Shown here piece after piece: positions 1 through 31,597 of a DNA stretch of 35,503 nucleotides. The position numbers and the translations under genes were made by a program. Location: the IMG/VR virus record IMGVR_UViG_2896595138_000012; one strand, given 5' to 3'. Numbering within the stretch: the first letter of the stretch is position 1; each line of letters starts with the position of its first letter. The DNA is from a virus. Taxonomy: Duplodnaviria > Heunggongvirae > Uroviricota > Caudoviricetes. Under the pieces are notes generated by a model. That model made no database searches. It had not been told where the DNA came from and saw only the letters and a program-made list of their open reading frames with translations.

Positions 1-1002
1 TTACCCTCTATTGTCAAAAGGGTTCAATTCAACAGCAGCCTCTAAATGACCTGGAGCAAAATGCGCATAACGCATAGTCATTTTTATATCGCTATGCCCC
101 AGTATTTTTTGCAACACAAGAATATTTCCGCCCCGCATCATAAAATGACTGGCAAACGTGTGACGTAGCACATGAGTTAATTGCCCATCAGGAAGCTCGA
201 TCTTCGCTCTCTTAATTGCAGCGTCAAAAGCCTCATAACATGGTGAAAATAGCGCTCCTCGTTTTTTAGGAAGCATAGCCTGCAATTGAGGTGAAATCGG
301 TACAGTGCGGTTCTTCTTTCCTTTAGTTTTAACAAATGTGATTCGACCGGGCAGTACTTGAGATTGCTTTAATCCTTCTGCTTCACTCCACCGAGCACCA
401 GTCGCAAGCCCAATACGGACAACAACCCCCAAATCTTTATTCCGTGACTCATCACACGCAATCAGAAGGCGTTCAATCTCATCTACATACAGAAACGCCA
501 GTTCCTTTTCTTCCTCACGAAACTTGCGAATACCAGTCAGGGGGTTTTCACCAGACCACTCCCCAAGGCGCTTCAGTTCGGCAAAAACAGCATGTAGATA
601 TGACTGCTCGCGATTAACGGTTGCTTCACTAAGTTTTTTCTTCCCCTTGGGATTCCATTCTCCTGATAGCCTTCTTTCCCGATAAGTAGCAAACATATTT
701 TTGTCAAACTGAGAAGCAAATGGATCTCCCAGCCTGGAACAAATCGCCTCAAGTTTGACTTTGCGCTCTGCACCAGAGGACAAGGTTTTACCGTACATAT
801 CAAACCAACGAGCAATCAACTCAGAAAGACGAGGACCAGAACCATCTTGAAACTCGTCTCCAACTCTACTATTCATTAAACGGCGCTCATAAGAGAGCGC
901 CTCACTTTTTGTCGCAAACTGTTTACGAATGCGTTTTCCCGATGCCCCGTAGGGATAACATTCGCAAAGCCATTTACCTGATGGAATCTTACGAACCGAC
1001 AT
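1..1002 (-). CDS. int: Tyrosine site-specific integrase (P2-like phage integrase)
   Basis: 333-aa ORF; C-terminal catalytic region HVLRHTFASHF ... MTMRYAHFAP typical of tyrosine recombinases; stop codon at positions 1-3 so attL lies outside the window. Confidence 0.9.
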   Translation of the reverse strand: MSVRKIPSGKWLCECYPYGASGKRIRKQFATKSEALSYERRLMNSRVGDEFQDGSGPRLSELIARWFDMYGKTLSSGAERKVKLEAICSRLGDPFASQFDKNMFATYRERRLSGEWNPKGKKKLSEATVNREQSYLHAVFAELKRLGEWSGENPLTGIRKFREEEKELAFLYVDEIERLLIACDESRNKDLGVVVRIGLATGARWSEAEGLKQSQVLPGRITFVKTKGKKNRTVPISPQLQAMLPKKRGALFSPCYEAFDAAIKRAKIELPDGQLTHVLRHTFASHFMMRGGNILVLQKILGHSDIKMTMRYAHFAPGHLEAAVELNPFDNRG

Positions 1003-1007
1003 TTTAG

Positions 1008-1355
1008 TTACTTATCACATAAATCAAATGCAGCCTTAGTGACATCCCCCAGACTCTTTTTTAACCCTGGGGCGGCATCATTATCTAGCCAAAATGGATT
1101 ATTGTTATCTAACGGTAACGCACCAAATGTTTTACCTTTTATTCGAGCCAAACCTGTAAGCGCATATAACTTATTATCGTCAAAATTCATCACATAAGGA
1201 TTACCATCAAGACACTGTAATTGAACCTCATCAGTATTAAATGGCCATACCCCATTGAAACTCTCACGTTCAATAGTTTTAAAAGGCATTGCGACGGCGG
1301 AAAAAGAAAACATAGATAAAAAAGTAACTAATAGTTGAACCTTTTTTACTTTCAT
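1008..1355 (-). CDS. Secreted small protein, YebY/DUF2511-like
   Basis: 115 aa; N-terminal signal peptide MKVKKVQLLVTFLSMFSFSAVA; two Cys; motif W-x-FN-x-DEV-x-L-x-C-x-GN-x-YV and C-terminal LC resemble the E. coli YebY family (recalled, not searched). Confidence 0.55.
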   Translation of the reverse strand: MKVKKVQLLVTFLSMFSFSAVAMPFKTIERESFNGVWPFNTDEVQLQCLDGNPYVMNFDDNKLYALTGLARIKGKTFGALPLDNNNPFWLDNDAAPGLKKSLGDVTKAAFDLCDK

Positions 1356-1384
1356 ATCATTACCTCAATTTAGCTCAAGTAAGA

Positions 1385-2032
1385 TTACAAATTAAAAAAC
1401 ACCCTAGAAATGGCGCCGCCTACCAAAACCCCTACGCAGATAAAGAATATTATTTCTTTTGGATAAAGTCGGAGTAATTCTGAAGCACGAAGTCGGACTT
1501 CTGGTAAGGTCGAACTCTCTGTGTGGCTTGATGCCGATTGTTGCTCTAACCACGACAATGCAGACTGTAACTGAGAACGAGTAAGATCGTTTAAACGTCC
1601 TGTACCGAAATTGATATGGCAATACCGCAGAAGTTTTTGTCGAAGTCCACAGTCTTCACTGTTACGTAGTAATAAACTTACAAGAGTCTTACAGGCATCA
1701 TGATCTTTACATCGCTCAAGCATTGCATGCAGAAAACTCTCCGCTGTTTTATATTGATTTACTGTCATATCATCAATACCAGCTACACCAATCTCCGCAT
1801 GTACTTTTTGCCAAATAATAAACGCTTCAGTATTGCTAGCTTCTGCAATAGCAGCAACCAAGCTATTTAGCTCCTTACGCTGAGCCTTAAGCAAAGGGCG
1901 ATCATCATCATTATTCGAAGGGATTGCGATATTGACGGTATGAGAACCATCATATCGCTCTATCTGAATATTCTTTTCGTGAAAATCACGCCCAGCAACG
2001 CGATTGTTTGAACCGTTTGAGTTGACGGCCAT
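1385..2032 (-). CDS. Hypothetical protein with C-terminal transmembrane anchor
   Basis: 215 aa; GGAGG Shine-Dalgarno 5 nt upstream of ATG; hydrophobic C-terminal segment IIFFICVGVLVGGAISRVFF; N-terminus carries NNRVAGRDF motif shared with the two adjacent HTH proteins. Confidence 0.6.
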   Translation of the reverse strand: MAVNSNGSNNRVAGRDFHEKNIQIERYDGSHTVNIAIPSNNDDDRPLLKAQRKELNSLVAAIAEASNTEAFIIWQKVHAEIGVAGIDDMTVNQYKTAESFLHAMLERCKDHDACKTLVSLLLRNSEDCGLRQKLLRYCHINFGTGRLNDLTRSQLQSALSWLEQQSASSHTESSTLPEVRLRASELLRLYPKEIIFFICVGVLVGGAISRVFFNL

Positions 2033-2047
2033 GTCACCTCCCTACTA

Positions 2048-2452
2048 TCACCTACCCTTAGTTTCGTTATAGTCACAACCAGCGATACGGTTATTACCGC
2101 CAGAAATATTTAACTCACGTCCTGATGGCTGAGTTTCCTTTTCACTGATCGCACCTTTTAAAGCCCCGATCACCGCGTTTTTCACATCTAACGAAGCTGC
2201 TCGAAAGCGAGTAATCAACTCCTGCTCATCATCGTTATAAGTTTCAGATGAGTGAATTCCCAACACAACATACTGAACATCAAGGCCAAAACGAGACAGC
2301 GCTGCCAAATACGCAGCATCAGGAAAACTATCTCCTTTCTCATATCTAAGCTGAGTTAGCTTTTTGACTCCGCCAATGTCGCTCATAGCAACTTGACTAA
2401 GTCCCAACCTTTCCCTTTCCTCACGCAACCGCTGACCAATATCACTTTTCAT
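2048..2452 (-). CDS. XRE-family helix-turn-helix transcriptional regulator
   Basis: 134 aa; N-terminal HTH (RLREERERLGLSQVAMSDIGGVKKLTQLRYEKG); C-terminal tail NNRIAGCDYNETKGR; paralog of the next gene. Confidence 0.8.
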   Translation of the reverse strand: MKSDIGQRLREERERLGLSQVAMSDIGGVKKLTQLRYEKGDSFPDAAYLAALSRFGLDVQYVVLGIHSSETYNDDEQELITRFRAASLDVKNAVIGALKGAISEKETQPSGRELNISGGNNRIAGCDYNETKGR

Positions 2453-2478
2453 ACAAAAACCTTGACAGGTATCTTTCG

Positions 2479-2904
2479 CTAACCCTTCGTTTCATTATAG
2501 TCACGACCTGCAATACGATGGCCTTTACCTGATACGTTTACCGTATTTGATGCAGAACTACCCGCAGTCAGGGCAGCAAGAGCTGCAGCCTTTACGGCAA
2601 GCGGAGCATTTCTAAAATGCTTGATAATTTCCATCTCATCACGGTTTAGAGCACCCCCGACAGCCTCACCAGTTAGTATGTATTGGACGTTAGCCCCATT
2701 AAGCGCAAATGAGAGCAAAACATCTCCCCCAGGTACCATAGTTCCCCGTTCGTACTTCCCCCAAGATTCTCGCGATACGCCGCAAAGAGCAGCAGCATCA
2801 GCCTGTTTGAGAGATAAACGCTTTCTCTCAGCCTTCAGTCTCGCACCACAAAGAGATGAAAAATTCACTTTTATACCTTGACTAAAGAGATCTATTGATC
2901 TCAT
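2479..2904 (-). CDS. XRE-family HTH regulator, candidate immunity repressor (P2 C / 186 CI position)
   Basis: 141 aa; HTH (ARLKAERKRLSLKQADAAALCGVSRESWGKYERG); first leftward gene at the divergent/face-to-face switch with the early operon; C-terminal tail GHRIAGRDYNETKG. Confidence 0.7.
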   Translation of the reverse strand: MRSIDLFSQGIKVNFSSLCGARLKAERKRLSLKQADAAALCGVSRESWGKYERGTMVPGGDVLLSFALNGANVQYILTGEAVGGALNRDEMEIIKHFRNAPLAVKAAALAALTAGSSASNTVNVSGKGHRIAGRDYNETKG

Positions 2905-2944
2905 AATTAATTAACAAACCATTAGATGATCACAATATACCACT
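2905..2944. promoter_or_regulatory. Lysis-lysogeny switch region between repressor-like gene and early operon
   Basis: Only 40 bp, AT-rich, separate the starts of the leftward repressor-like gene and the rightward early genes; in P2/186-type phages the opposing promoters overlap the gene starts; no operator was identified. Confidence 0.3.
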
Positions 2945-3151
2945 ATGAAACAAGTTCTTCACGATACCAGATCACGCATTCCGCGTAACACCGCCGCAGG
3001 TCCAAGACTGGCACTTCGGCTGTCCATCGAGGAGCGAGCCGTCATTGATGAAATGGCAGCTAAAGAACAACGCTCATCCTCTAACATGGCGCGCATGATC
3101 TTCCTTCGCGGCCTAGAGCTAACCCAGAAAGAACAAAACAAATCTTCCTGA
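2945..3151 (+). CDS. Small early regulatory protein (possible ribbon-helix-helix DNA binder)
   Basis: 68 aa; first gene of rightward early operon; segment RLSIEERAVIDEMAAKEQRSSSNMARMIFLRG is RHH-like; weak RBS. Confidence 0.45.
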   Translation: MKQVLHDTRSRIPRNTAAGPRLALRLSIEERAVIDEMAAKEQRSSSNMARMIFLRGLELTQKEQNKSS

Positions 3152-3167
3152 TCAGGAGGCTAGTGGG

Positions 3168-3371
3168 ATGTCAGGTATAACCATCAATATCAATGTGAAT
3201 GCCCCCTATGTATCCCTGCAGAAATATGCAGAGATAACAGGTATCCCTCTTAATACATGCAAAAAGATGTTGGCTGACGGTCGAATTATTATCCGCCCCA
3301 AACGTGCCAAAATGGAAAAGCCTGAAGTAAACCTTGTGGCGATGTTAAAAGACGCTTTGGCTAACAGCTAA
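3168..3371 (+). CDS. Cox-like excisionase/early regulator
   Basis: 67 aa; AGGAGG RBS; PYVSLQKYAEITGIPLNTCKKMLADGRI resembles P2 Cox N-terminal HTH (PYQEFAKLIGKSTGAVRRMIDKGKL, recalled). Confidence 0.5.
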   Translation: MSGITININVNAPYVSLQKYAEITGIPLNTCKKMLADGRIIIRPKRAKMEKPEVNLVAMLKDALANS

Positions 3372-3392
3372 AACAATGAACAGAGCATCATC

Positions 3393-3743
3393 ATGAAAAA
3401 AAACGCTAATAATCCATACTCCAAATTTCGTAATGGCGTAGAACGCCATGTACACCACGTTGCTACCAGTGCATCACGTAGCAACATCCGCTACAGCCTG
3501 AGCGATACACACGCAACGCCGGATGGCTACCCCGTAAAACAAATCGGCGAGCACGCCTGGCTGATTGAGAAAGCTGGAATCGTAGTCCACAAATACCCAC
3601 GCAATCCGTTTACCGGAAACCGCATTTTTGCTCTGAGCTGCGGCGACAATCAGTTCGGGCAGGATTTCACGTTGTACGAAGCGCTACGCACAGTTGATCG
3701 CCTTCTTTACGGAGAAAATTTTATTAAACAGGCTGAGTTATAA
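3393..3743 (+). CDS. Hypothetical early protein
   Basis: 116-aa ORF in early operon, protein-like composition. Confidence 0.55.
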   Translation: MKKNANNPYSKFRNGVERHVHHVATSASRSNIRYSLSDTHATPDGYPVKQIGEHAWLIEKAGIVVHKYPRNPFTGNRIFALSCGDNQFGQDFTLYEALRTVDRLLYGENFIKQAEL

Positions 3744-3784
3744 CAGCGGGTTTATCACCGGTTATTTTTAACGAGGACTCCGTT

Positions 3785-4027
3785 ATGAGAAAACACACAG
3801 CAGAACAGGTAAACGAATTTCTGCAGGGATATTACTTCGATAACGAAATTAATCCCCGCGCCAGAAAAACACACTTCGAAGTAATGAAGTGCGGAATATT
3901 CAGCGTCCGCAACACCCTGTTTTGTTCAAAAGATACGGGAGCCAGCGAGGACCTTAAAGAACTTAACCGGATGGCGAAACAATTAATGGATGGCATGGTT
4001 CCCGAACCCGCAATAATTACGGAGTAA
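3785..4027 (+). CDS. Hypothetical early protein
   Basis: 80-aa ORF with GAGGA RBS. Confidence 0.55.
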   Translation: MRKHTAEQVNEFLQGYYFDNEINPRARKTHFEVMKCGIFSVRNTLFCSKDTGASEDLKELNRMAKQLMDGMVPEPAIITE

Positions 4028-4032
4028 TCACG

Positions 4033-4218
4033 ATGAATTTCAGTTATTCATTCAGTGTACCGGAGTCGTTATTTGTTATCACACTGATTGCAGCCGCAAT
4101 GTTTTTTGCCATCTGCATACTGACACTTATTGATACATGGCGGGAAATACGCGACAGACGTCGCCAGAAAAAAAACGGGATGCATACAACGCATTCATTC
4201 AGCACAAAGAAGACGTAG
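4033..4218 (+). CDS. Small single-pass membrane protein
   Basis: 61 aa; GGAG RBS; hydrophobic helix VITLIAAAMFFAICILTLI followed by basic tail. Confidence 0.45.
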   Translation: MNFSYSFSVPESLFVITLIAAAMFFAICILTLIDTWREIRDRRRQKKNGMHTTHSFSTKKT

Positions 4219-4315
4219 AGCGTAAAGCACGCCGCCGTCTTTAGTTAATTAACCGGTTTCGTTAATACACCGCTCACGCGGCGGGATTCGCACAATCTGA
4301 ATAAGGGAAATAAAA

Positions 4316-4738
4316 ATGATTAATCCGACACTCACCCTCAAAGATAAAGCCCTTGCGGGCGCAATGTTTTTACGCAACTACGCCGCAATGATGGCTGACA
4401 CTGACAACCCGATTATGGTGCTGTCAGTGGAGCCTCACCTTATCGCCGCAGACGCAATTGAACAGGTGGTACAGGAAAACACCTGTCTGAGAAATCAGCT
4501 TGCCACCCTTCAGACAGCAGCTGACCCGGCAAAGGAAAGTGCTGAACACACCTGCCACACCACATTCATCAAAGGGACCCGCGTATGTCTGAAAAACAGT
4601 CCGCAGCAACGCGGAACGGTCGTTGACACCCGCACCAGTAGCCCCGCCATTGACCGGGTTTTCGTCCGTTTCGATTCCCCCTTCGAGGAAGACCGCCGGG
4701 TAAAGACCAGAAACCTGGAAATAACCCCCGACAAATGA
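4316..4738 (+). CDS. Hypothetical early protein
   Basis: 140-aa ORF; stop overlaps next start. Confidence 0.6.
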   Translation: MINPTLTLKDKALAGAMFLRNYAAMMADTDNPIMVLSVEPHLIAADAIEQVVQENTCLRNQLATLQTAADPAKESAEHTCHTTFIKGTRVCLKNSPQQRGTVVDTRTSSPAIDRVFVRFDSPFEEDRRVKTRNLEITPDK

Positions 4739-4992
4739 AGCTGATTATCCCTGCGCGACACCGCAAAAACCGGATGAAGCCAGGGGGAAAGCCGGAGCGG
4801 GCAGCAAGGGCGGCATACCGTCGCCTGCTGAAGGGGGACCGGTCACACGTGCGACGGCTGGAGCGGGTACCGCCCGCCCGCGTCATCAACGTCATGTACC
4901 GTTACCGGCTGTTAAGTCTGGACGAAGGCCGGACATGGGTACTGCTTAACCATAACGAATACGTGAAGAGGATAAGACGATGTTACAGATGA
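4735..4992 (+). CDS. Hypothetical basic protein
   Basis: 85 aa, arginine-rich; start overlaps upstream stop (operon coupling). Confidence 0.5.
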   Translation: MKLIIPARHRKNRMKPGGKPERAARAAYRRLLKGDRSHVRRLERVPPARVINVMYRYRLLSLDEGRTWVLLNHNEYVKRIRRCYR

Positions 4993-5510
4993 AATTTAAG
5001 CCCTGCTTTATTGACGCATTCCGCAACGGACGCAAGACCACATCCCTTCGCCCGACGGGGTTTGATTGCTACCAGGCGGGCCAGGAGTCAGCAGAATATT
5101 TTCATGAAGACACCCTGACCCGCAACATCGTTCTTCCCGATTACAGCGCCGGCGGTACCCTGGTTTTTGAGGAGGGAACCACATTTACCCGCGCATCAGA
5201 CTTTGCCGGACTCCTGAAAAGACAGCCCTACCGACAGTATGACAACATTCATCTGGTCACAGAAAACAAGAACGGCGAAACCGTGCCGTTCGCCGTGGCC
5301 TTCATTGCCGATATCGGTGTAATACAGGGCCGCCAGATAACCGATGAAGTGGCCGTCAGGGACGGCTTTAACCCTGAAAACCATCCCCGCGACGAACTCT
5401 TTGCATTCATGCGGGACACCTGCCACATAGAAAACCCCAAAAACGAAACCTACTGGCGGTACACCTTCACCCACATCGTGATGTTGTCGCAGTGGAGGGC
5501 TGACGCATGA
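4980..5510 (+). CDS. ASCH-like (PUA-fold) domain protein
   Basis: 176 aa; N-terminal F-x3-F-x2-NGRKTTSLRP pattern resembles ASCH domain start (recalled). Confidence 0.45.
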   Translation: MLQMKFKPCFIDAFRNGRKTTSLRPTGFDCYQAGQESAEYFHEDTLTRNIVLPDYSAGGTLVFEEGTTFTRASDFAGLLKRQPYRQYDNIHLVTENKNGETVPFAVAFIADIGVIQGRQITDEVAVRDGFNPENHPRDELFAFMRDTCHIENPKNETYWRYTFTHIVMLSQWRADA

Positions 5511-5746
5511 AACCCGCCATTATCTGCATTCTGTGCGAGAGCACTGTCACCGGCGGCCATTACCGCATCAGGGAACGCCACATCAACCCTGACCGTTCGC
5601 TGCTGGACAACATCACCGGCCCGAATGATGAACGCGTGATCTGCCTGAACGACGGCTCGCAGTTACGCGTGCGCAATATCCGGCGCGAAATCACGCTCGA
5701 ACCCACCCCATTCACACGCGGGAAAAAACCGGAGAGTGACGCATGA
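5507..5746 (+). CDS. Hypothetical protein
   Basis: 79-aa ORF with overlapping start/stop coupling to neighbours. Confidence 0.5.
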   Translation: MKPAIICILCESTVTGGHYRIRERHINPDRSLLDNITGPNDERVICLNDGSQLRVRNIRREITLEPTPFTRGKKPESDA

Positions 5747-6702
5747 AAGGTATTCTGAACCAGCGCTCACCGCTCAAATGGGCGGGCGGCAAATTCAGTA
5801 TCATGCCGCAGCTGCGCGAATATTTACCCAAAGCCGCCTGCCTGATCGAACCCTTCGTGGGCGGCGGCTCGGTCTTCATGAACACGGATTATGACTATTA
5901 CGTATTGTGTGACAGCAACCCCGCGCTGATTAATTTCTACCAGCAACTGACGACCAACACCACGGAATTAATGGATCGTGCATGGTCACTCTTTAAGGAT
6001 GGCGGCACACCGGAAGCCTACAAACGCCATCGCGGAGCATTTAACACCATCGCGCTGGCCACCGACAGATTACGCGGAGAATCCCTGGAATGGGCAGCGC
6101 TGTTTCTGTACCTGAACCGCCATTGCTTTAACGGCCTGTACCGCACCAACCAAAAAGGCGAATTCAATGTGCCATTCGGCAAACACCGCATGCCTTATTT
6201 CCCCTGCCAGGAAATGCGCCTGTTTGCTGATAAAGCCAACGAGACCCGGACCCGCTTTATTCACGCGGATTTCCGTACAGCCTTCACAATGCCGGCTGAG
6301 ATCCACCGTTTTTCTTCGGTGCACGGCGATATCGCCATTTACTGCGATCCGCCCTACCTGCCACCGAACGGTAAAGAGGCGTTCACTCACTACAACGGCC
6401 GGGCATTTACCCGCAAAGACCACCGTGACCTTGCGGCGCTCATGATGAACGCCTGGCAACGTTACGGTATCCACCCGGTGGTCTCCAACAGTGACACCTC
6501 CGAAACCCGGCAGATCTATTCCTCGTTTGAGCTGCACACCCTGAGCGTTCGCCGCGCTGTGGCTGCCAGCAGCAGTGCACGCCAGCAGGCAAAAGAGGTG
6601 ATTGGTGTTTATCCGCCAGCCCGTGAGGTCCGGATCCGGGATGTCAATGCGGGCTGGCTGTCTCACATTCCCGCTCCACACCCCACCACGGAGATCATGT
6701 AA
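5743..6702 (+). CDS. dam: DNA adenine (N6) methyltransferase, Dam family
   Basis: 319 aa; N-terminal LKWAGGK and catalytic DPPY (IYCDPPYLPP) motifs, strong resemblance to E. coli Dam N-terminus. Confidence 0.9.
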   Translation: MKGILNQRSPLKWAGGKFSIMPQLREYLPKAACLIEPFVGGGSVFMNTDYDYYVLCDSNPALINFYQQLTTNTTELMDRAWSLFKDGGTPEAYKRHRGAFNTIALATDRLRGESLEWAALFLYLNRHCFNGLYRTNQKGEFNVPFGKHRMPYFPCQEMRLFADKANETRTRFIHADFRTAFTMPAEIHRFSSVHGDIAIYCDPPYLPPNGKEAFTHYNGRAFTRKDHRDLAALMMNAWQRYGIHPVVSNSDTSETRQIYSSFELHTLSVRRAVAASSSARQQAKEVIGVYPPAREVRIRDVNAGWLSHIPAPHPTTEIM

Positions 6703-7013
6703 TGGCCATTATCTATATCGCCGGCCCCATGACGGGGAAGCCTGATTTCAACCGCACCGCCTTCACCATGACGGCGACCCGCCTGAGGATGCAGGGTCAT
6801 ACCGTACTCAACCCCGCAACACTCCCTGACGGGCTGAGATACAGGGACTACATGCTTATCGGGAGCGCCATGCTGCACTGTGCCGATGTGATTTACCTGC
6901 TGGATGGCTGGGAGGACTCGCCGGGGGCAAAAGAGGAACACGCCACCGCCCTGAAACTGAATCTGATCATCTCCACACCAGAAAGCCGTAAGGAGGCCAA
7001 ATCATGTTTCTGA
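6702..7013 (+). CDS. DUF4406 / nucleoside 2-deoxyribosyltransferase-like protein
   Basis: 103 aa; N-terminal IYIAGPMTG and later DVIYLLDGWEDSPGAKEE motif typical of this fold (recalled); start overlaps dam stop. Confidence 0.55.
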   Translation: MAIIYIAGPMTGKPDFNRTAFTMTATRLRMQGHTVLNPATLPDGLRYRDYMLIGSAMLHCADVIYLLDGWEDSPGAKEEHATALKLNLIISTPESRKEAKSCF

Positions 7014-7558
7014 AACCAATGGGGGGACCAGGTAAAGCACCGAAGCACGTCAGTGCCTGGACACAACAGGAAGACGAACTGCTTATCTCGCTTTATCAGG
7101 ATCACAGCACATGGCAAATGGCTGAACGACTTCAGCGAACCCGCAGCGCAGTGATGCACCGGATTCTTTTTTTACGTAATCGCGGGTTGATTGGTCGCAA
7201 GAGAAAAGCACCGCTGAGTGCAGAAGCCATCGCCTTTCTCACCAAAAACCGTCACGCAAAAACCGCACGGGAACTGGCCCGGAAGGCGGGATGCAGCGAG
7301 TGCACCGTGAGGTACACACTGCATAAACGGGGTTACAGCCTTAAGAAATGCGGCGAGAGCCACCATTGCACCAGATACAGCGATCGTCTGGCTGAGCTGG
7401 TTACGGAGCTACGCGACAGACGCAACATGACGTTCTGCATAATCGCGAAACACATCAACATCACGATGCAAATGCACATCAGCGATGATACGGCGTTTCA
7501 CCTCTACAACCGCCGGACCGCCGCCGACGCCCTGTTGTACGAACTGCTGCCGAACTGA
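7004..7558 (+). CDS. DNA-binding protein with Myb/SANT-like HTH repeats
   Basis: 184 aa; W-x-EDELL-x-W ... RNRG and further basic HTH-like segments. Confidence 0.5.
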   Translation: MFLKPMGGPGKAPKHVSAWTQQEDELLISLYQDHSTWQMAERLQRTRSAVMHRILFLRNRGLIGRKRKAPLSAEAIAFLTKNRHAKTARELARKAGCSECTVRYTLHKRGYSLKKCGESHHCTRYSDRLAELVTELRDRRNMTFCIIAKHINITMQMHISDDTAFHLYNRRTAADALLYELLPN

Positions 7559-7678
7559 GTGATCATCATGCACACACAAAAAAACCGCTTGCCATGTCGC
7601 AATCAGTCAGGTTACATTTCCGCTGCACCTCATAAAACGGGTGCCGGGATTGAGACCCCGCTGACAAACGTAGCGCAC

Positions 7679-7699
7679 AACCGCGCCAGCGGTTTTTTT
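7679..7699 (+). terminator. Rho-independent terminator-like hairpin
   Basis: AACCGC-GCCA-GCGGTT stem-loop followed by a T7 run, about 120 nt after the 184-aa gene. Confidence 0.45.
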
Positions 7700-7878
7700 G
7701 TGCGTACCGTATCGTCACACCTTTTTCGCATCAGAATTATGGTGGGGCGTACAGGGCCGACTTCGGTCGGGCCGGGTTCTGCGTTTGCCGGTAGTCTCAA
7801 CCCTGTACGTCTCACCACCCCGAGTTTGAGACCTCTGGATGGTGAGTTTTCAAAACTTACACACGTAGAGGCCACACC

Positions 7879-8106
7879 ATGGCAAACCGCAAACAACAGC
7901 GCGCATACGCTGCGCGTCGTCACATCCGGACTGAAATCAACCGCAGACTTTTCCGCGCCTTCCGCGTCGCGCATATCATGCACATCAATATGCTGCATGA
8001 GCGCAGTCACGCACTGTCAAACACCTATTCCGCCGCTGTTTTCAGCTATCTGGCGGATGATCTGCGCGGGCTGCGGGACCTCATTAACCAGCACTACCAC
8101 CACTAA
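7879..8106 (+). CDS. Hypothetical small basic protein
   Basis: 75 aa; AGAGG RBS 7 nt upstream of ATG; preferred over the overlapping 202-aa ORF, which has non-protein-like composition. Confidence 0.4.
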   Translation: MANRKQQRAYAARRHIRTEINRRLFRAFRVAHIMHINMLHERSHALSNTYSAAVFSYLADDLRGLRDLINQHYHH

Positions 8107-8163
8107 TCAACATCCCGCATCCATACGCGGGAGGCTTCCGCACGTCCGTTTCCGGAGGTTCTC

Positions 8164-8577
8164 ATGAAGAGCGTTAAGGGACTTTCAGATATTCAGGATT
8201 TTTTTAACTGGATGTGGGCGGTGGATCCACGCCTCGCTTCCCGTCTCAATGACCTGCACGACTATTACCGCCGCGCCTGTAAACAGGCCGCCAGCAGCGC
8301 CACCACATACGGTGAGTTTTCCTTCACCGTTGACGACCGTTACCGCGTGGACGTCAGAGACCAGAACAACAGCCTGGAGCTGGGCCTGTTCCACATCAAC
8401 GGACTCGACAGCAGTGTTATCAGCTGGTCATCGTCAGAAATGGTGCTCGTTCTGGAAATGACCACCCACAGCGTGGTCGTGAAAGGGATTAAAACGGCAG
8501 AAGACTTTATCGCTGAATACCAGCGTCTTCTTGTGCTGTACCGGGCTGCATTTCAGAAGGCAACAGCAGGGGAGTAA
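8164..8577 (+). CDS. Hypothetical protein upstream of replication gene (position of P2 B)
   Basis: 137 aa; GGAGG RBS 6 nt upstream. Confidence 0.55.
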   Translation: MKSVKGLSDIQDFFNWMWAVDPRLASRLNDLHDYYRRACKQAASSATTYGEFSFTVDDRYRVDVRDQNNSLELGLFHINGLDSSVISWSSSEMVLVLEMTTHSVVVKGIKTAEDFIAEYQRLLVLYRAAFQKATAGE

Positions 8578-8582
8578 GCGGA

Positions 8583-22470: not shown

Positions 22471-22932
22471 ATGAACACCGAACGCATCAGTGGTATGAGC
22501 TTTGACACGTCATTTAATGGCCGCATCGTTCACGTAAAAACCGCCACCCTTGATATTACCGACAACACCAAAGCCATTCAGGAGCGCGGTGTACCTGATG
22601 GCTGGGTACGCGGCGACGTGGAAGCCGGCGGTGAAATTGAACTGGATACCGTTAACTTCCAGCTTCTTGGTGAAGCCGCGCGTGAAGCAGGGAGCTGGCG
22701 CGACATCGAAGAAGCCGACTTTCTCTTCTTTGCCCGTGCAGCAAAGACAGAACTCAGGGTGGAAGCCTTTGGTTGCAAACTGCTGATCAGTAACCTGCTG
22801 AATATCGACAGCAAGGGCGGTGACAACATAAGCCATAAAATCAAATTTATGGTGACTTCGCCGGAGTTCGTCAAAATTGACGGTGTTCCGGTTCTCAGCG
22901 CCACCGATGTTCGGGACATCATGAACCAATAG
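22471..22932 (+). CDS. Tail tube protein (DUF2597-like)
   Basis: 153 aa immediately after sheath gene. Confidence 0.6.
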   Translation: MNTERISGMSFDTSFNGRIVHVKTATLDITDNTKAIQERGVPDGWVRGDVEAGGEIELDTVNFQLLGEAAREAGSWRDIEEADFLFFARAAKTELRVEAFGCKLLISNLLNIDSKGGDNISHKIKFMVTSPEFVKIDGVPVLSATDVRDIMNQ

Positions 22933-23026
22933 GAAAGACAATGCAAAGCACCCCCACAACTGGAGCGACTGGCTGGCGATAATCAAAGACTGGTTACGTG
23001 GTGATATCCCTCTTGACAGTCTGCTG

Positions 23027-23278
23027 ATGACTGCCGTCATTGCAGCACTCAGAGTGTTTTACACAGGCCGCAGCTGGCGTCGTCTTTTGCTTGAGGTGCC
23101 GTTGTGTTGCCTGCTGGCCGTGGCGGCATTCACCCTCATTAAGCCGGTCCCCGTCGCATGGCTGACCGAAGACTGGCGCGTCGGTATCGGTGCCGCAATT
23201 GGCCTTATTGGTGTTGAACATATCCGGGCACTGGGTGTGTTCATCACAAAGAAATTTGCAGGGAAAAGTGACGAATGA
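23027..23278 (+). CDS. Holin (N-terminus probably lies upstream at 22941, see findings)
   Basis: 83 aa with two hydrophobic helices and charged C-terminus; stop overlaps lysozyme start. Confidence 0.6.
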   Translation: MTAVIAALRVFYTGRSWRRLLLEVPLCCLLAVAAFTLIKPVPVAWLTEDWRVGIGAAIGLIGVEHIRALGVFITKKFAGKSDE

Positions 23279-23718
23279 AAATTTCAGACAACGGGCTGGC
23301 CGCACTTAAACGCGAAGAAAACTGCAAACTGACCGCTTACCCCGATCCGCGCGGCGTATGGACCATTGGTACAGGTCACACAGGAAAGGTTGATGGTGTC
23401 GCAGTTCACAAAGGCATGACCATCACCCAGGACACCGCCGACAGACTGCTACGCGACGATCTGTCATGGGTGGAGCACTGCATCGCTGAACGGGTAACAG
23501 TTCCGCTGAACCAGAGTCAGTATGACGCGTTGTGTAGCCTGATTTTCAATATCGGCGCTGACGCTTTTATCGGTTCCACCGTTCGCCGTCAGTTAAACGC
23601 CGGCAACTACACCGCCGCCGCTGATGCTTTCCTGAAATGGAGCCGCGCAGGCAGTAACCCGACAATTCTGGCCCCGCGTCGCGGACGTGAGCGGGCAATG
23701 TTTCTGGGACAGAGGTAA
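23275..23718 (+). CDS. Phage lysozyme / endolysin (GH24, T4-lysozyme-like)
   Basis: 147 aa; catalytic E-x9-D-x5-T triad region REENCKLTAYPDPRGVWTIGTGHT. Confidence 0.85.
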   Translation: MKISDNGLAALKREENCKLTAYPDPRGVWTIGTGHTGKVDGVAVHKGMTITQDTADRLLRDDLSWVEHCIAERVTVPLNQSQYDALCSLIFNIGADAFIGSTVRRQLNAGNYTAAADAFLKWSRAGSNPTILAPRRGRERAMFLGQR

Positions 23719-23724
23719 GGCCAC

Positions 23725-24189
23725 ATGAAACGCGCAACACTCGCCTTTATCGTCTTCATGGTCGTCGCCGTGGCCGTGCTCGGCTTCACAGCTGACTACT
23801 GGCACAACCGCTTCACCAGGGCAGAAAAAGCCCGCCAGAAAGCCGTAAATCTTGCCGACACCCGACAGCAGACCATTGACGACATGACACTGCGTCAGCG
23901 CCAGAACGCCGCGCTTGATGCGAAATACACAAAGGAGCTCGCCAATGCAAAAGCTGAATCCGAAAAGTTACGCGCCGATCTTGCTTCTGGCCGTCGCCGG
24001 TTGCAGCTCCACGCCGTCTGTATGCCCGCCGCCACGCGTGATACCACCGCCACCGGCTCAACTGATGCAACCGCCGCCCGACTTACTCCGGACGCTGAAC
24101 GGGATTATCAGCATCTCAGAGCCGAAGCGAAAGCCGTCGTTGCACAAGTGAACGGCCTGCAACAGTACATTACTGAACAATGTCATTAA
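23725..24189 (+). CDS. Rz-like i-spanin
   Basis: 154 aa; N-terminal TM anchor then charged coiled-coil periplasmic domain; follows lysozyme. Confidence 0.7.
   Translation: MKRATLAFIVFMVVAVAVLGFTADYWHNRFTRAEKARQKAVNLADTRQQTIDDMTLRQRQNAALDAKYTKELANAKAESEKLRADLASGRRRLQLHAVCMPAATRDTTATGSTDATAARLTPDAERDYQHLRAEAKAVVAQVNGLQQYITEQCH
23945..24151 (+). CDS. Rz1-like o-spanin lipoprotein (embedded in Rz, +1 frame)
   Basis: AGGAG RBS; signal peptide with lipobox LAVAGC; proline-rich mature part. Confidence 0.7.
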   Translation: MQKLNPKSYAPILLLAVAGCSSTPSVCPPPRVIPPPPAQLMQPPPDLLRTLNGIISISEPKRKPSLHK

Positions 24190-24819: not shown

Positions 24820-26760
24820 ATGGGGGCTGCTCAGGGAATAAAAGGACTGGTCAACCCCGCCCGCGACATGGAAGCCGCGCTGGCCGAAGTCAGCTCGCTG
24901 GATGTGGCAAATAAAACACTCGATCAGCTGCGTAAAACTTCACAGACGTTTGCCATTAACTACGGCGAAAGCGCCAGCAATTTCGTCCGCAGCGCCTACG
25001 ATATCCAGTCCGCCATCGCAGGACTTCAGGGTGACGAACTGCCAAAATTTACTGAAGCATCCGCCATTCTCGCCAAAGCCACCAAATCAGACACGGCCAC
25101 CATTACTAACTATATGGGCACCATGTACGGTGTTTTTAAAAATACCGCAGAGAAGATGGGGCGCACGCAGTGGGTTGAACAAATTGCCGGGCAGACCGCA
25201 ACCGCCGTTCAGGTGTTCAAAACTACCGGTAATGAAATGTCTGCTGCCTTTACTGCGCTGGGTGCCAACGCGCAGGCAATGAAGGTATCTGCCGCTGAAC
25301 AGTTCGCCGTACTGGGACAGCTCCAGTCCACCATGTCAGGCAGCGAGGCGGGAACCAAATATAAATCATTCCTGGCGGGGATTGGGAATGCGCAAAAAGT
25401 GCTGGGGCTGAACTTTACCAACCGGGACGGCAGTGCCAGAAGCATTACCGGTATCATCGACCTGATTAAAGGAAAGTTTGGCGATCTGTCAAAAGTGGCA
25501 GATGCAGACCTGCTGAAAAAAGCCTTTGGCAGCGATGAAGCGGTGTCCATGATTAAACTACTGACCGGAGATGTTGACGGGCTGAAACGGAACATCAATA
25601 CATTAGGTAACATCAAAGGCATGGATAAAGCCATCGAAATGGCGAAAAAGATGGTTGACCCGTGGGATCAGGTTAATTCTTTACTGGAGCAGGTTCGCGT
25701 CAGCATTGGTCTGCGGCTCGATCCCGTCTTTGCCCCGTTCCTGCAAAAAATCATCACCGGCGGGAAAGCCTTCATGAAATGGCTGGATACGTTCCCCAAT
25801 ATTGCCCGCTGGCTGGGATATATCACTGCAATGACCCTCGCCTTTGCCGCAGCAGGGGCGCTTGCCAGTATCACGATGGGGGCCTTCGGCTTTATCATGA
25901 CCGGGCTCAGCGGAATTGCTGGCGTGCTGAAAGGCGCATGGAAAGGACTAATCTTCACCCTGGATTTATTACGCCCCTCCCTGCTTTCAACCCGTCTTGG
26001 CCTGATGGGGCTATGGATTCAGGAAAAAGCCGTCTGGGTGTGGTCAAAGCTGGTCGCTCTTTGGGCAGGGATCTGTAAAGCAGCGATCGTAGCCTGGAAC
26101 GTAGTGTTACGTGCGGGCGCGGTTGCAATGCGCCTGTGGGGCGTGGCGACGGCATTCGCAGGCGGTGCGCTTCAACTCCTGATAAGTCCCATAACCCTGA
26201 TTATTCTCGCCATTGCCGCACTTGCCGTAGGGATCTGTCTGGCTATCAAATACTGGGACAGTATTAAAGCCGCCATCATGGACACGGAAGCTTTCAGTGC
26301 CCTGCTAAAAGTCATTAACGCTGTGGTGGGCTGGTTTGATGATGCATGGAACAGCATTAAAGCCGGATGGGACAATCTGACGAACTGGTTTAAAAATTTC
26401 TCGCTGGCCGACACATTCGGCAATATCACAGCTGGAATTGGCAAGCTCTTTGACGGCATATGGGATTCCATTAAGAGCGCCTTTACCGGGACATGGAACT
26501 GGATAGCAGAGAAGCTCAACAAAATCCCCGGTGTCAATATCAGCACCGCACAACAGACCGTCGCACCGACACCCGCCCCGGAGCTTATCACTGGCAACCG
26601 TAGCGCCGCCATCCAGGGCGGGCCGGTAAGTCACCAGATAAGCAACAACCGGGGCGACAAAGTCACCAATAACAACGTTAAGCAGGATATCACACTGCAC
26701 GTTGACACCCTGGCGACACCGGGACAACTGGCGGAATACAGCGAACTGGCAGCGGGGTGA
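24820..26760 (+). CDS. Tail tape measure protein (5' end apparently frameshifted; true start probably 24680)
   Basis: 646 aa, Ala/Gly-rich with central hydrophobic segments; follows chaperone pair. Confidence 0.8.
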   Translation: MGAAQGIKGLVNPARDMEAALAEVSSLDVANKTLDQLRKTSQTFAINYGESASNFVRSAYDIQSAIAGLQGDELPKFTEASAILAKATKSDTATITNYMGTMYGVFKNTAEKMGRTQWVEQIAGQTATAVQVFKTTGNEMSAAFTALGANAQAMKVSAAEQFAVLGQLQSTMSGSEAGTKYKSFLAGIGNAQKVLGLNFTNRDGSARSITGIIDLIKGKFGDLSKVADADLLKKAFGSDEAVSMIKLLTGDVDGLKRNINTLGNIKGMDKAIEMAKKMVDPWDQVNSLLEQVRVSIGLRLDPVFAPFLQKIITGGKAFMKWLDTFPNIARWLGYITAMTLAFAAAGALASITMGAFGFIMTGLSGIAGVLKGAWKGLIFTLDLLRPSLLSTRLGLMGLWIQEKAVWVWSKLVALWAGICKAAIVAWNVVLRAGAVAMRLWGVATAFAGGALQLLISPITLIILAIAALAVGICLAIKYWDSIKAAIMDTEAFSALLKVINAVVGWFDDAWNSIKAGWDNLTNWFKNFSLADTFGNITAGIGKLFDGIWDSIKSAFTGTWNWIAEKLNKIPGVNISTAQQTVAPTPAPELITGNRSAAIQGGPVSHQISNNRGDKVTNNNVKQDITLHVDTLATPGQLAEYSELAAG

Positions 26761-31474: not shown

Positions 31475-31597
31475 ATGTGGTTTCCGGCAAAACTGATGCT
31501 TCCGACAGGTAATATCACCCCCATAACATGTTCAGCTATGGCCGTACATCCGTGGGATGTTGAAGCGGGCACATTACGCCAGACGGTGCGTATTTAA
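31475..31597 (+). CDS. Small ORF of unknown function (possible gene remnant or frameshifted 5' end of next gene)
   Basis: 40 aa; AGAGAGG RBS 6 nt upstream of ATG. Confidence 0.3.
   Translation: MWFPAKLMLPTGNITPITCSAMAVHPWDVEAGTLRQTVRI

Follow-up and report, generated by a model that had tools for sequence, protein, structure and literature searches.

The analyzed stretch of DNA (35,503 nt; hereafter, the window) is 100% identical to positions 4749150-4784652 of CP026845.1 (GCA_002950375.1) and carries a prophage that combines P2-type head genes with HP1-type tail genes. In the window, as in its relatives, the genes are arranged in the order sheath, tube, holin, lysozyme and Rz. A blastn search in 'distant' mode with positions 22850-23350 yielded no match in the phage collection, and the element is thus known only as a prophage. 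The companion 230-kb plasmid (CP026844.1) carries ipaC/ipaD/ipaA, ospC and ipaH-like genes, a gene content that points to a host of the Shigella or enteroinvasive E. coli (EIEC) type.

The lysis cassette and the split holin gene

The holin is preceded by a 153-aa gene of the HP1 Orf24 family, probably encoding the tail tube (22471-22932, plus strand; PF10772, E = 2e-54). Downstream, all on the plus strand, are the genes for a 147-aa endolysin of the phage lysozyme family (23275-23718; PF00959, E = 1.8e-39), a 154-aa Rz-type inner-membrane spanin (23725-24189; PF03245, E = 8e-33) and, embedded within Rz in the +1 frame, a 68-aa Rz1-type outer-membrane lipoprotein spanin, which is proline-rich and has the lipobox LAVAGC (23945-24151). 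The stop codon of the holin and the start codon of the lysozyme overlap in an ATGA (23275-23278). The holin occupies the position typical of a lysis cassette, with the lysozyme and then Rz with its embedded Rz1 downstream, and the predicted cassette, consisting of a holin, a soluble lysozyme, Rz and Rz1, is complete and canonical. Because the endolysin sequence contains no N-terminal hydrophobic signal-anchor, the enzyme is expected to be holin-dependent: by analogy, the holin would gather in the inner membrane, trigger and form holes through which the soluble endolysin would reach the cell wall. In the RefSeq relatives, Rz1 is not annotated and only a 'lysis protein' is listed.

Read directly from the sequence, the tube gene ends with a TAG (22930-22932), which is followed after 8 nt by an ATG (22941-22943). 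The ribosome-binding site for this start is AGGAAA (22931-22936, plus strand), with its AGGA core 6 nt before the ATG. The codons from 22941 are ATG CAA AGC ACC CCC ACA ACT GGA GCG ACT GGC TGG CGA TAA, that is, a 13-codon open reading frame (ORF; MQSTPTTGATGWR*, 22941-22982, plus strand) terminated by the TAA at 22980-22982. As recorded, the holin gene is out of frame past codon 5, where a run of five C residues (C5) is located (22951-22955, plus strand, corresponding to CP026845.1:4772100-4772104). The holin frame itself is open from 22925, following the TGA at 22922-22924, and its first ATG, GTG or TTG codon is the ATG at 23027, upstream of which this frame holds only the near-cognate codons CTG, ATA and ATC. 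This ATG, equivalent to M30 of the holin, opens the 83-aa remnant present in the ORF list (23027-23278, plus strand), and no purine-rich ribosome-binding site precedes it in the sequence atccctcttgacagtctgctgATG. The AGGAAA site, the 8-nt spacing, the short ORF, the frame open from 22925 and the missing ribosome-binding site at 23027 all agree with a preliminary description of this DNA, which proposed 22941 as the holin start, placed the break at the C5 run and predicted a 112-aa protein upon addition of one C.

The repaired 112-aa form matches TIGR01594 over positions 2-106 of the 107 in the profile (60.7 bits, cut-off 55.05), PF05106 (58 bits) and the holin/anti-holin family PHROG 126. The 83-aa ORF receives 47.6 bits with TIGR01594, under the cut-off, and covers only profile positions 29-106, whereas with PF05106 it attains 43.8 bits against a threshold of 23.8; full-length family matches are obtained with the 112-aa form only. 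Kyte-Doolittle analysis delineates three hydrophobic segments (approximately 28-41, 49-68 and 79-96) and a C-terminal tail, KKFAGKSDE. An AlphaFold2 model of low confidence (pLDDT 55.7), which gives rough limits only, contains helices at 8-19, 25-42, 46-67 and 79-107. In BLASTP, residues 34-109 of the holin align with residues 29-97 of lambda S at 26% identity. Judging from these profile and hydropathy matches, the gene belongs to the lambda S family and encodes an ordinary, probably class I holin, for which three membrane helices are predicted.

Intact relatives and the start of the holin gene

We compared positions 22850-23350 with 5,426 complete E. coli genomes using megablast. Six genomes matched, with the 501 query bases aligned to 502, and the sole difference over the entire segment was C6 in place of C5. 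In all six, a 339-nt CDS annotated as 'phage holin, lambda family' begins at the ATG equivalent to 22941 and is translated as MQSTPHNWSDWLAIIKDWLRGDIPLDSLLMTAV... (112 aa, WP_001192103.1); the relatives carrying this protein include CFSAN029787, FDAARGOS_943 and VL40. C6 was also present in six IMG/VR contigs, so that all the near-identical relatives, 12 loci in total, have the longer run, and the AGGAAA site is unchanged in them. Given that near-identical genomes contain exactly one more C and an unbroken 112-aa CDS from the same ATG, the reading of these two ORFs as a holin split at C5 goes beyond chance. The proposed interruption was thus borne out by the twelve C6 loci, and so was its repair by a single C, which yields an exact match to WP_001192103.1.

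At the protein level, the search returned 99 relatives, nearly all of 111-112 aa. The identical 112-aa protein is encoded on 222 contigs, the exact 83-aa protein on only 2 contigs of the collection, and the 83-aa ORF was found in none of the short-read (Logan) assemblies. A scan of GTDB species representatives identified a single locus, in Citrobacter braakii, and a scan of metagenomes for C4-C7 alleles found none. The set compared at the DNA level consisted of 31 related loci, namely, 30 IMG/VR contigs and the C. braakii locus. In 31/31 of these, the start is the ATG equivalent to 22941, located behind a GGA/GGAG-type site in the same position, as the preliminary description had anticipated, and the products are 109-113 aa long; no homologue in the alignment starts at the residue equivalent to 23027. 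Pro5-His6 is kept through synonymous codons (CCG CAC, CCA CAT, CCC CAC), and the C-run varies from 2 to 6 nt (2-5 nt in 25 of the 31), always in frame. Thus, the C-run is not a conserved element. For codons 2-29, the ratio pN/pS equals 0.35 in the holin frame, versus 0.99 and 1.9 in the other two frames, which argues that these codons are translated and constrained by purifying selection. These comparisons show that the true gene, as predicted from its homologues, extends over 22941-23278 (plus strand), starts at 22941 and encodes 112 aa.

Of all the readings considered, the least probable, and close to negligible, is that the 83-aa ORF from the ATG at 23027 is a real functional holin, with the 29 codons upstream lying outside the gene. 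This ORF still passes the PF05106 threshold, and M30 is kept in most relatives. However, codons 2-29 are conserved as protein and match family profile positions 2-28, the ORF is below the TIGR01594 cut-off, 23027 is without a ribosome-binding site, and M30 is replaced by Ile in two related loci (L041 and L042). Two homologues called at 99 aa (P0084 and P0093) were considered as recurrent N-terminal frameshifts, an interpretation that was rejected because the DNA contains an open 112-aa frame; their length results from the gene caller's choice of a start codon within that frame.

Two other copies of the holin do contain frameshifts: in Shigella boydii WP_134807756.1 (P0009) and E. coli UJY48676.1 (P0096), the changes are a compensated double frameshift (LRGDIPL to YVVISLF) or a shift of frame beyond residue 68, which suggests that indel errors or mutations have struck this gene repeatedly, in other assemblies as well.

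The same set of loci bears on regulated expression through the C-run, either as a phase-variable lysis switch or through -1 ribosomal or transcriptional slippage that would restore the full-length holin. A -1 shift at CCC, from 22953-22955 to 22952-22954, would re-pair the tRNA-Pro perfectly and bring back the frame, and C5 is recorded in two unrelated assemblies (see below). Nevertheless, such regulation is extremely improbable: the run is only 2-5 nt in most of the related loci, with Pro-His kept and every relative in frame, the zero-frame ACC CCC ACA holds no X XXY YYZ heptamer, and the run differs in length only in assemblies that contain many further homopolymer errors. Known contingency tracts and transcriptional-slippage sites are far longer than 5-6 nt. 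A programmed -1 frameshift site was rejected given the in-frame gene in the 31 related loci and 222 contigs and the lack of a slippery heptamer, and a phase-variable tract was rejected given C6 in the 12 near-identical loci, C5 in two error-rich assemblies only and a tract of 5-6 nt.

G/C runs in the window and in the surrounding chromosome

The late region of the prophage (13555-35503) is 99.97% identical to VL40, whereas the adjacent chromosome (L007:13833-20546) is about 1% divergent from it, with 68 substitutions in 6.7 kb, and the early region (1-12105) shows 88-92% identity to VL40 and 98.6% to FDAARGOS_943. These differences in identity among the late region, the early region and the flanks indicate that the prophage is a mosaic, with a late module that appears to have been recently exchanged. 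Between the ogr-like late activator and the portal genes, the window carries an ISEc20 insertion (IS110 family; 12106-13554) with an intact 398-aa transposase. It is missing from the same site in six related prophages; the source assembly contains six copies of the exact transposase, which is otherwise absent from the collection. The copy in the window has no indels relative to the others, an observation that is uninformative on errors either way.

Over the late region (21,953 bp), the window differs from VL40, its nearest relative there, by only 2 substitutions and 4 deletions of one base, each deletion being located in a G/C run. Besides the holin run (C6 to C5, 22951-22955), the contracted runs are located in the tape measure gene (G6 to G5, 24822-24826), the tail fibre gene (C6 to C5, 28951-28955) and a hypothetical gene (G4 to G3, 31567-31569). 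The latter three contractions hold relative to six near-identical prophages and are probably artefactual in the same way as the C5 of the holin. As recorded, the tape measure is split into 53 + 646 aa, the tail fibre into 54 + 603 aa and the hypothetical gene into 40 + 181 aa, instead of 693, 668 and 240 aa, respectively, in the near-identical prophages. An audit of all runs in the late region found 3/7 of the G/C runs of six contracted and the sole C9 garbled, with 0/17 G/C runs of five and 0/20 A/T runs of at least six changed. At position 14387, in the region of the minus-strand portal gene, an A breaks the C9 run of VL40 (CCACCCCCC vs CCCCCCCCC), which may be another homopolymer miscall.

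The same pattern extends beyond the prophage. In 13 kb of flanking chromosome, the only G6 run, which is intergenic (L009:15647), reads G5 here, whereas four other genomes have G6. Another 19.7 kb of core chromosome contains a single G/C run of at least six, a C7 in kup that reads CCCCCT here, and in this segment 10/10 G/C runs of five are intact. Over the approximately 55 kb audited, 6/10 G/C runs of at least six were shortened or garbled across prophage, intergenic and housekeeping DNA, those outside the prophage being a small sample of 3 runs, and no indels were found in G/C runs of five or in A/T runs of at least six. Contraction of 4/8 G/C runs of six versus indels in 0/46 A/T runs of at least six, the latter count being the one at the time of the test, gives a Fisher P = 2e-4. 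Relative to VL40, the chromosomal flank has 68 substitutions and 1 indel, compared with 2 and 4 in the late region (Fisher P = 6e-5), although in this comparison core genes are purged of indels by selection.

In E. coli lines deficient in mismatch repair, substitutions outnumber small indels by about 7 to 1 (6.02 vs 0.85 per CDS; PMC8510543, Table 3). Even under this ratio, the probability of at least 4 indels among 6 differences is P = 0.003, and a mutator history as the cause of the indels was rejected, the substitutions being far too few. In long-read assemblies, homopolymer indels are a typical residual error that creates false pseudogenes (PMC12007338).

Additional disruptions were noted elsewhere in the source genome. 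Within the early region, one-base deletions relative to FDAARGOS_943 are located at 10641 (G4 to G3), 11199 (G4 to G3) and 11391 (C3 to C2), affecting a gpA-type replication endonuclease (719 aa here vs 838 aa) and the next gene; this comparison, at 98.6% identity, is less clean than that of the late region. In the chromosome, rbsC and kup are frameshifted at or beside C-runs (L052:17019 and L052:21095-21100, CP026845.1). Many genes, including fecI/fecR/fecD, comM and the rha genes as well as ipaD and ipaA on the plasmid (L054), are called in pieces; these may include both true Shigella pseudogenes and errors of the assembly.

Given the specificity of the deletions for G/C runs, the scarcity of substitutions and the same pattern outside the prophage, we conclude that, with good probability, the real gene is intact and the C5 arose as an under-call in the consensus or assembly. 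The locus is the holin of a P2/HP1-like prophage lysis cassette in a Shigella/EIEC-type chromosome, with its real start at the ATG at 22941 and a real product of 112 aa. Loss of one C from a C6 in the record, at 22951-22955, would have produced the 13-codon ORF and the 83-aa remnant, and the missing C would be one of many G/C homopolymer under-calls in this assembly, with the holin probably intact in the real DNA. The interruption is most likely non-biological.

Only one other assembly contains C5, namely PSSR01000002.1. In this sequence, eleven further one-base homopolymer deletions are found within approximately 1.9 kb just upstream of the shared C5, and the C5 itself sits in approximately 4 kb that is otherwise indel-free relative to the window. 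Over 6.2 kb, 13 substitutions separate PSSR01000002.1 (L005) from the window, compared with a single one for the C6 genome CFSAN029787. The C6 genomes are thus closer to the window than this assembly is, implying that C5 appeared twice independently, which suits a site-specific calling error.

The main alternative is a genuine pseudogene, in which a real slippage deletion in C6 inactivated the holin of a prophage that is decaying in its Shigella/EIEC host. Genomes of this type truly accumulate pseudogenes, and the host has both an invasion-type plasmid and many IS copies; the ISEc20 insertion in the prophage is real, and integrases are IS-disrupted in relatives too. Furthermore, long G/C runs are also favoured by natural slippage, and the surroundings of the C5 in the second assembly are locally clean. 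In this scenario, the prophage would be lysis-defective, its endolysin needing the holin, and the 83-aa remnant, devoid of the N-terminal 29 residues and of part of the first helix, would be non-functional or at most antiholin-like; the N-terminal membrane domain of lambda S is cited as being required for holin activity and dispensable for antiholin activity (White et al. 2010, J Bacteriol 192:725, as cited in bioRxiv 10.1101/2023.09.08.556860). However, we consider this scenario unlikely: four G/C-run deletions against two substitutions in 22 kb would be exceptional (P ~0.003) even for mismatch-repair-deficient lines, 6/10 G/C runs of at least six are affected, in prophage, intergenic and housekeeping DNA alike, whereas G/C5 runs and A/T runs of at least six are spared, the two C5 assemblies are not each other's closest relatives, and the 83-aa ORF is in no Logan short-read assembly while the intact protein is on 222 contigs. 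Very unlikely, too, is a genuine C5 that arose independently in two strains, with the C-run acting as a slippage-prone lysis-off switch or with a trickle of full-length holin produced through -1 slippage at CCC. If true, recurrent loss of a C at this site would offer a Shigella/EIEC host a simple route to domestication of the prophage, with the tail genes retained.

Consequences for annotation and comparison with known holins

With an under-called C as the preferred reading, the finding is an ordinary one and its biological importance is small. Its useful outcome is a corrected annotation of the holin together with a warning on G/C-homopolymer under-calls in the CP026845.1 assembly. The annotation of the gene should begin at 22941 and describe a 112-aa holin that is frameshifted or probably intact, rather than an 83-aa protein. 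In CP026845.1, under-calling of G/C runs of at least six appears to be systematic; hence, at least three further late-gene frameshifts, in the tape measure, tail fibre and hypothetical genes, are suspect, as is the frameshift in kup, outside the prophage. Without read-level checks, neither the numbers of pseudogenes nor the 'defective prophage' calls of this genome should be relied upon. The preliminary description did not raise the possibility that the interruption itself is an assembly artefact, which it probably is.

The preliminary description also suggested a dual start, formed by M1 and the internal Met at 23027, like that of lambda S. This suggestion did not hold. M1 and M30 are the sole Met codons and lie 29 codons apart, whereas the lambda S starts, at 45186 and 45192, are separated by 2 codons, and the longer lambda product has one extra positive charge (PMC9636201). 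M30 is without a ribosome-binding site in every relative and corresponds to ATC in the two loci in which it is replaced by Ile. It also falls inside the first membrane helix predicted from hydropathy, with which the low-confidence AlphaFold2 model (pLDDT 55.7) agrees. [quoted passage not shown] A lambda-type dual start was therefore rejected, given the 29-codon gap, the missing ribosome-binding site, the Ile in L041 and L042 and the position within the helix.

The pattern of errors resembles that of the false pseudogenes in long-read assemblies for which the Kastor tool was described (PMC12007338), where one-base homopolymer deletions fragment conserved genes; it differs in that the errors here are in G/C runs only, whereas the nanopore data of that study contain more errors in A/T runs.

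The holin itself is like lambda S (S105/S107) in matching PF05106 and TIGR01594, in showing three hydrophobic segments by hydropathy and a charged C-terminal tail, and in being encoded immediately upstream of the endolysin and Rz/Rz1. Unlike lambda S, it has neither the Met-Lys-Met dual start nor a second Met near M1, and it extends a few residues further at the N-terminus. The cassette has a T4-type lysozyme (PF00959) as its endolysin, whereas the lambda R enzyme is a transglycosylase. Furthermore, the cassette is located between the tail tube and tail chaperone genes, in a prophage that is P2/HP1-like and not lambdoid. The closest counterparts are the prophages encoding WP_001192103.1, which have the same DNA over 22850-23350 save one C, the same ribosome-binding site, the same start codon and the same gene order, whereas in the window C5 splits the CDS into the 13-codon and 83-aa ORFs. 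The 112-aa protein is already known and is present in RefSeq as a lambda-family holin.
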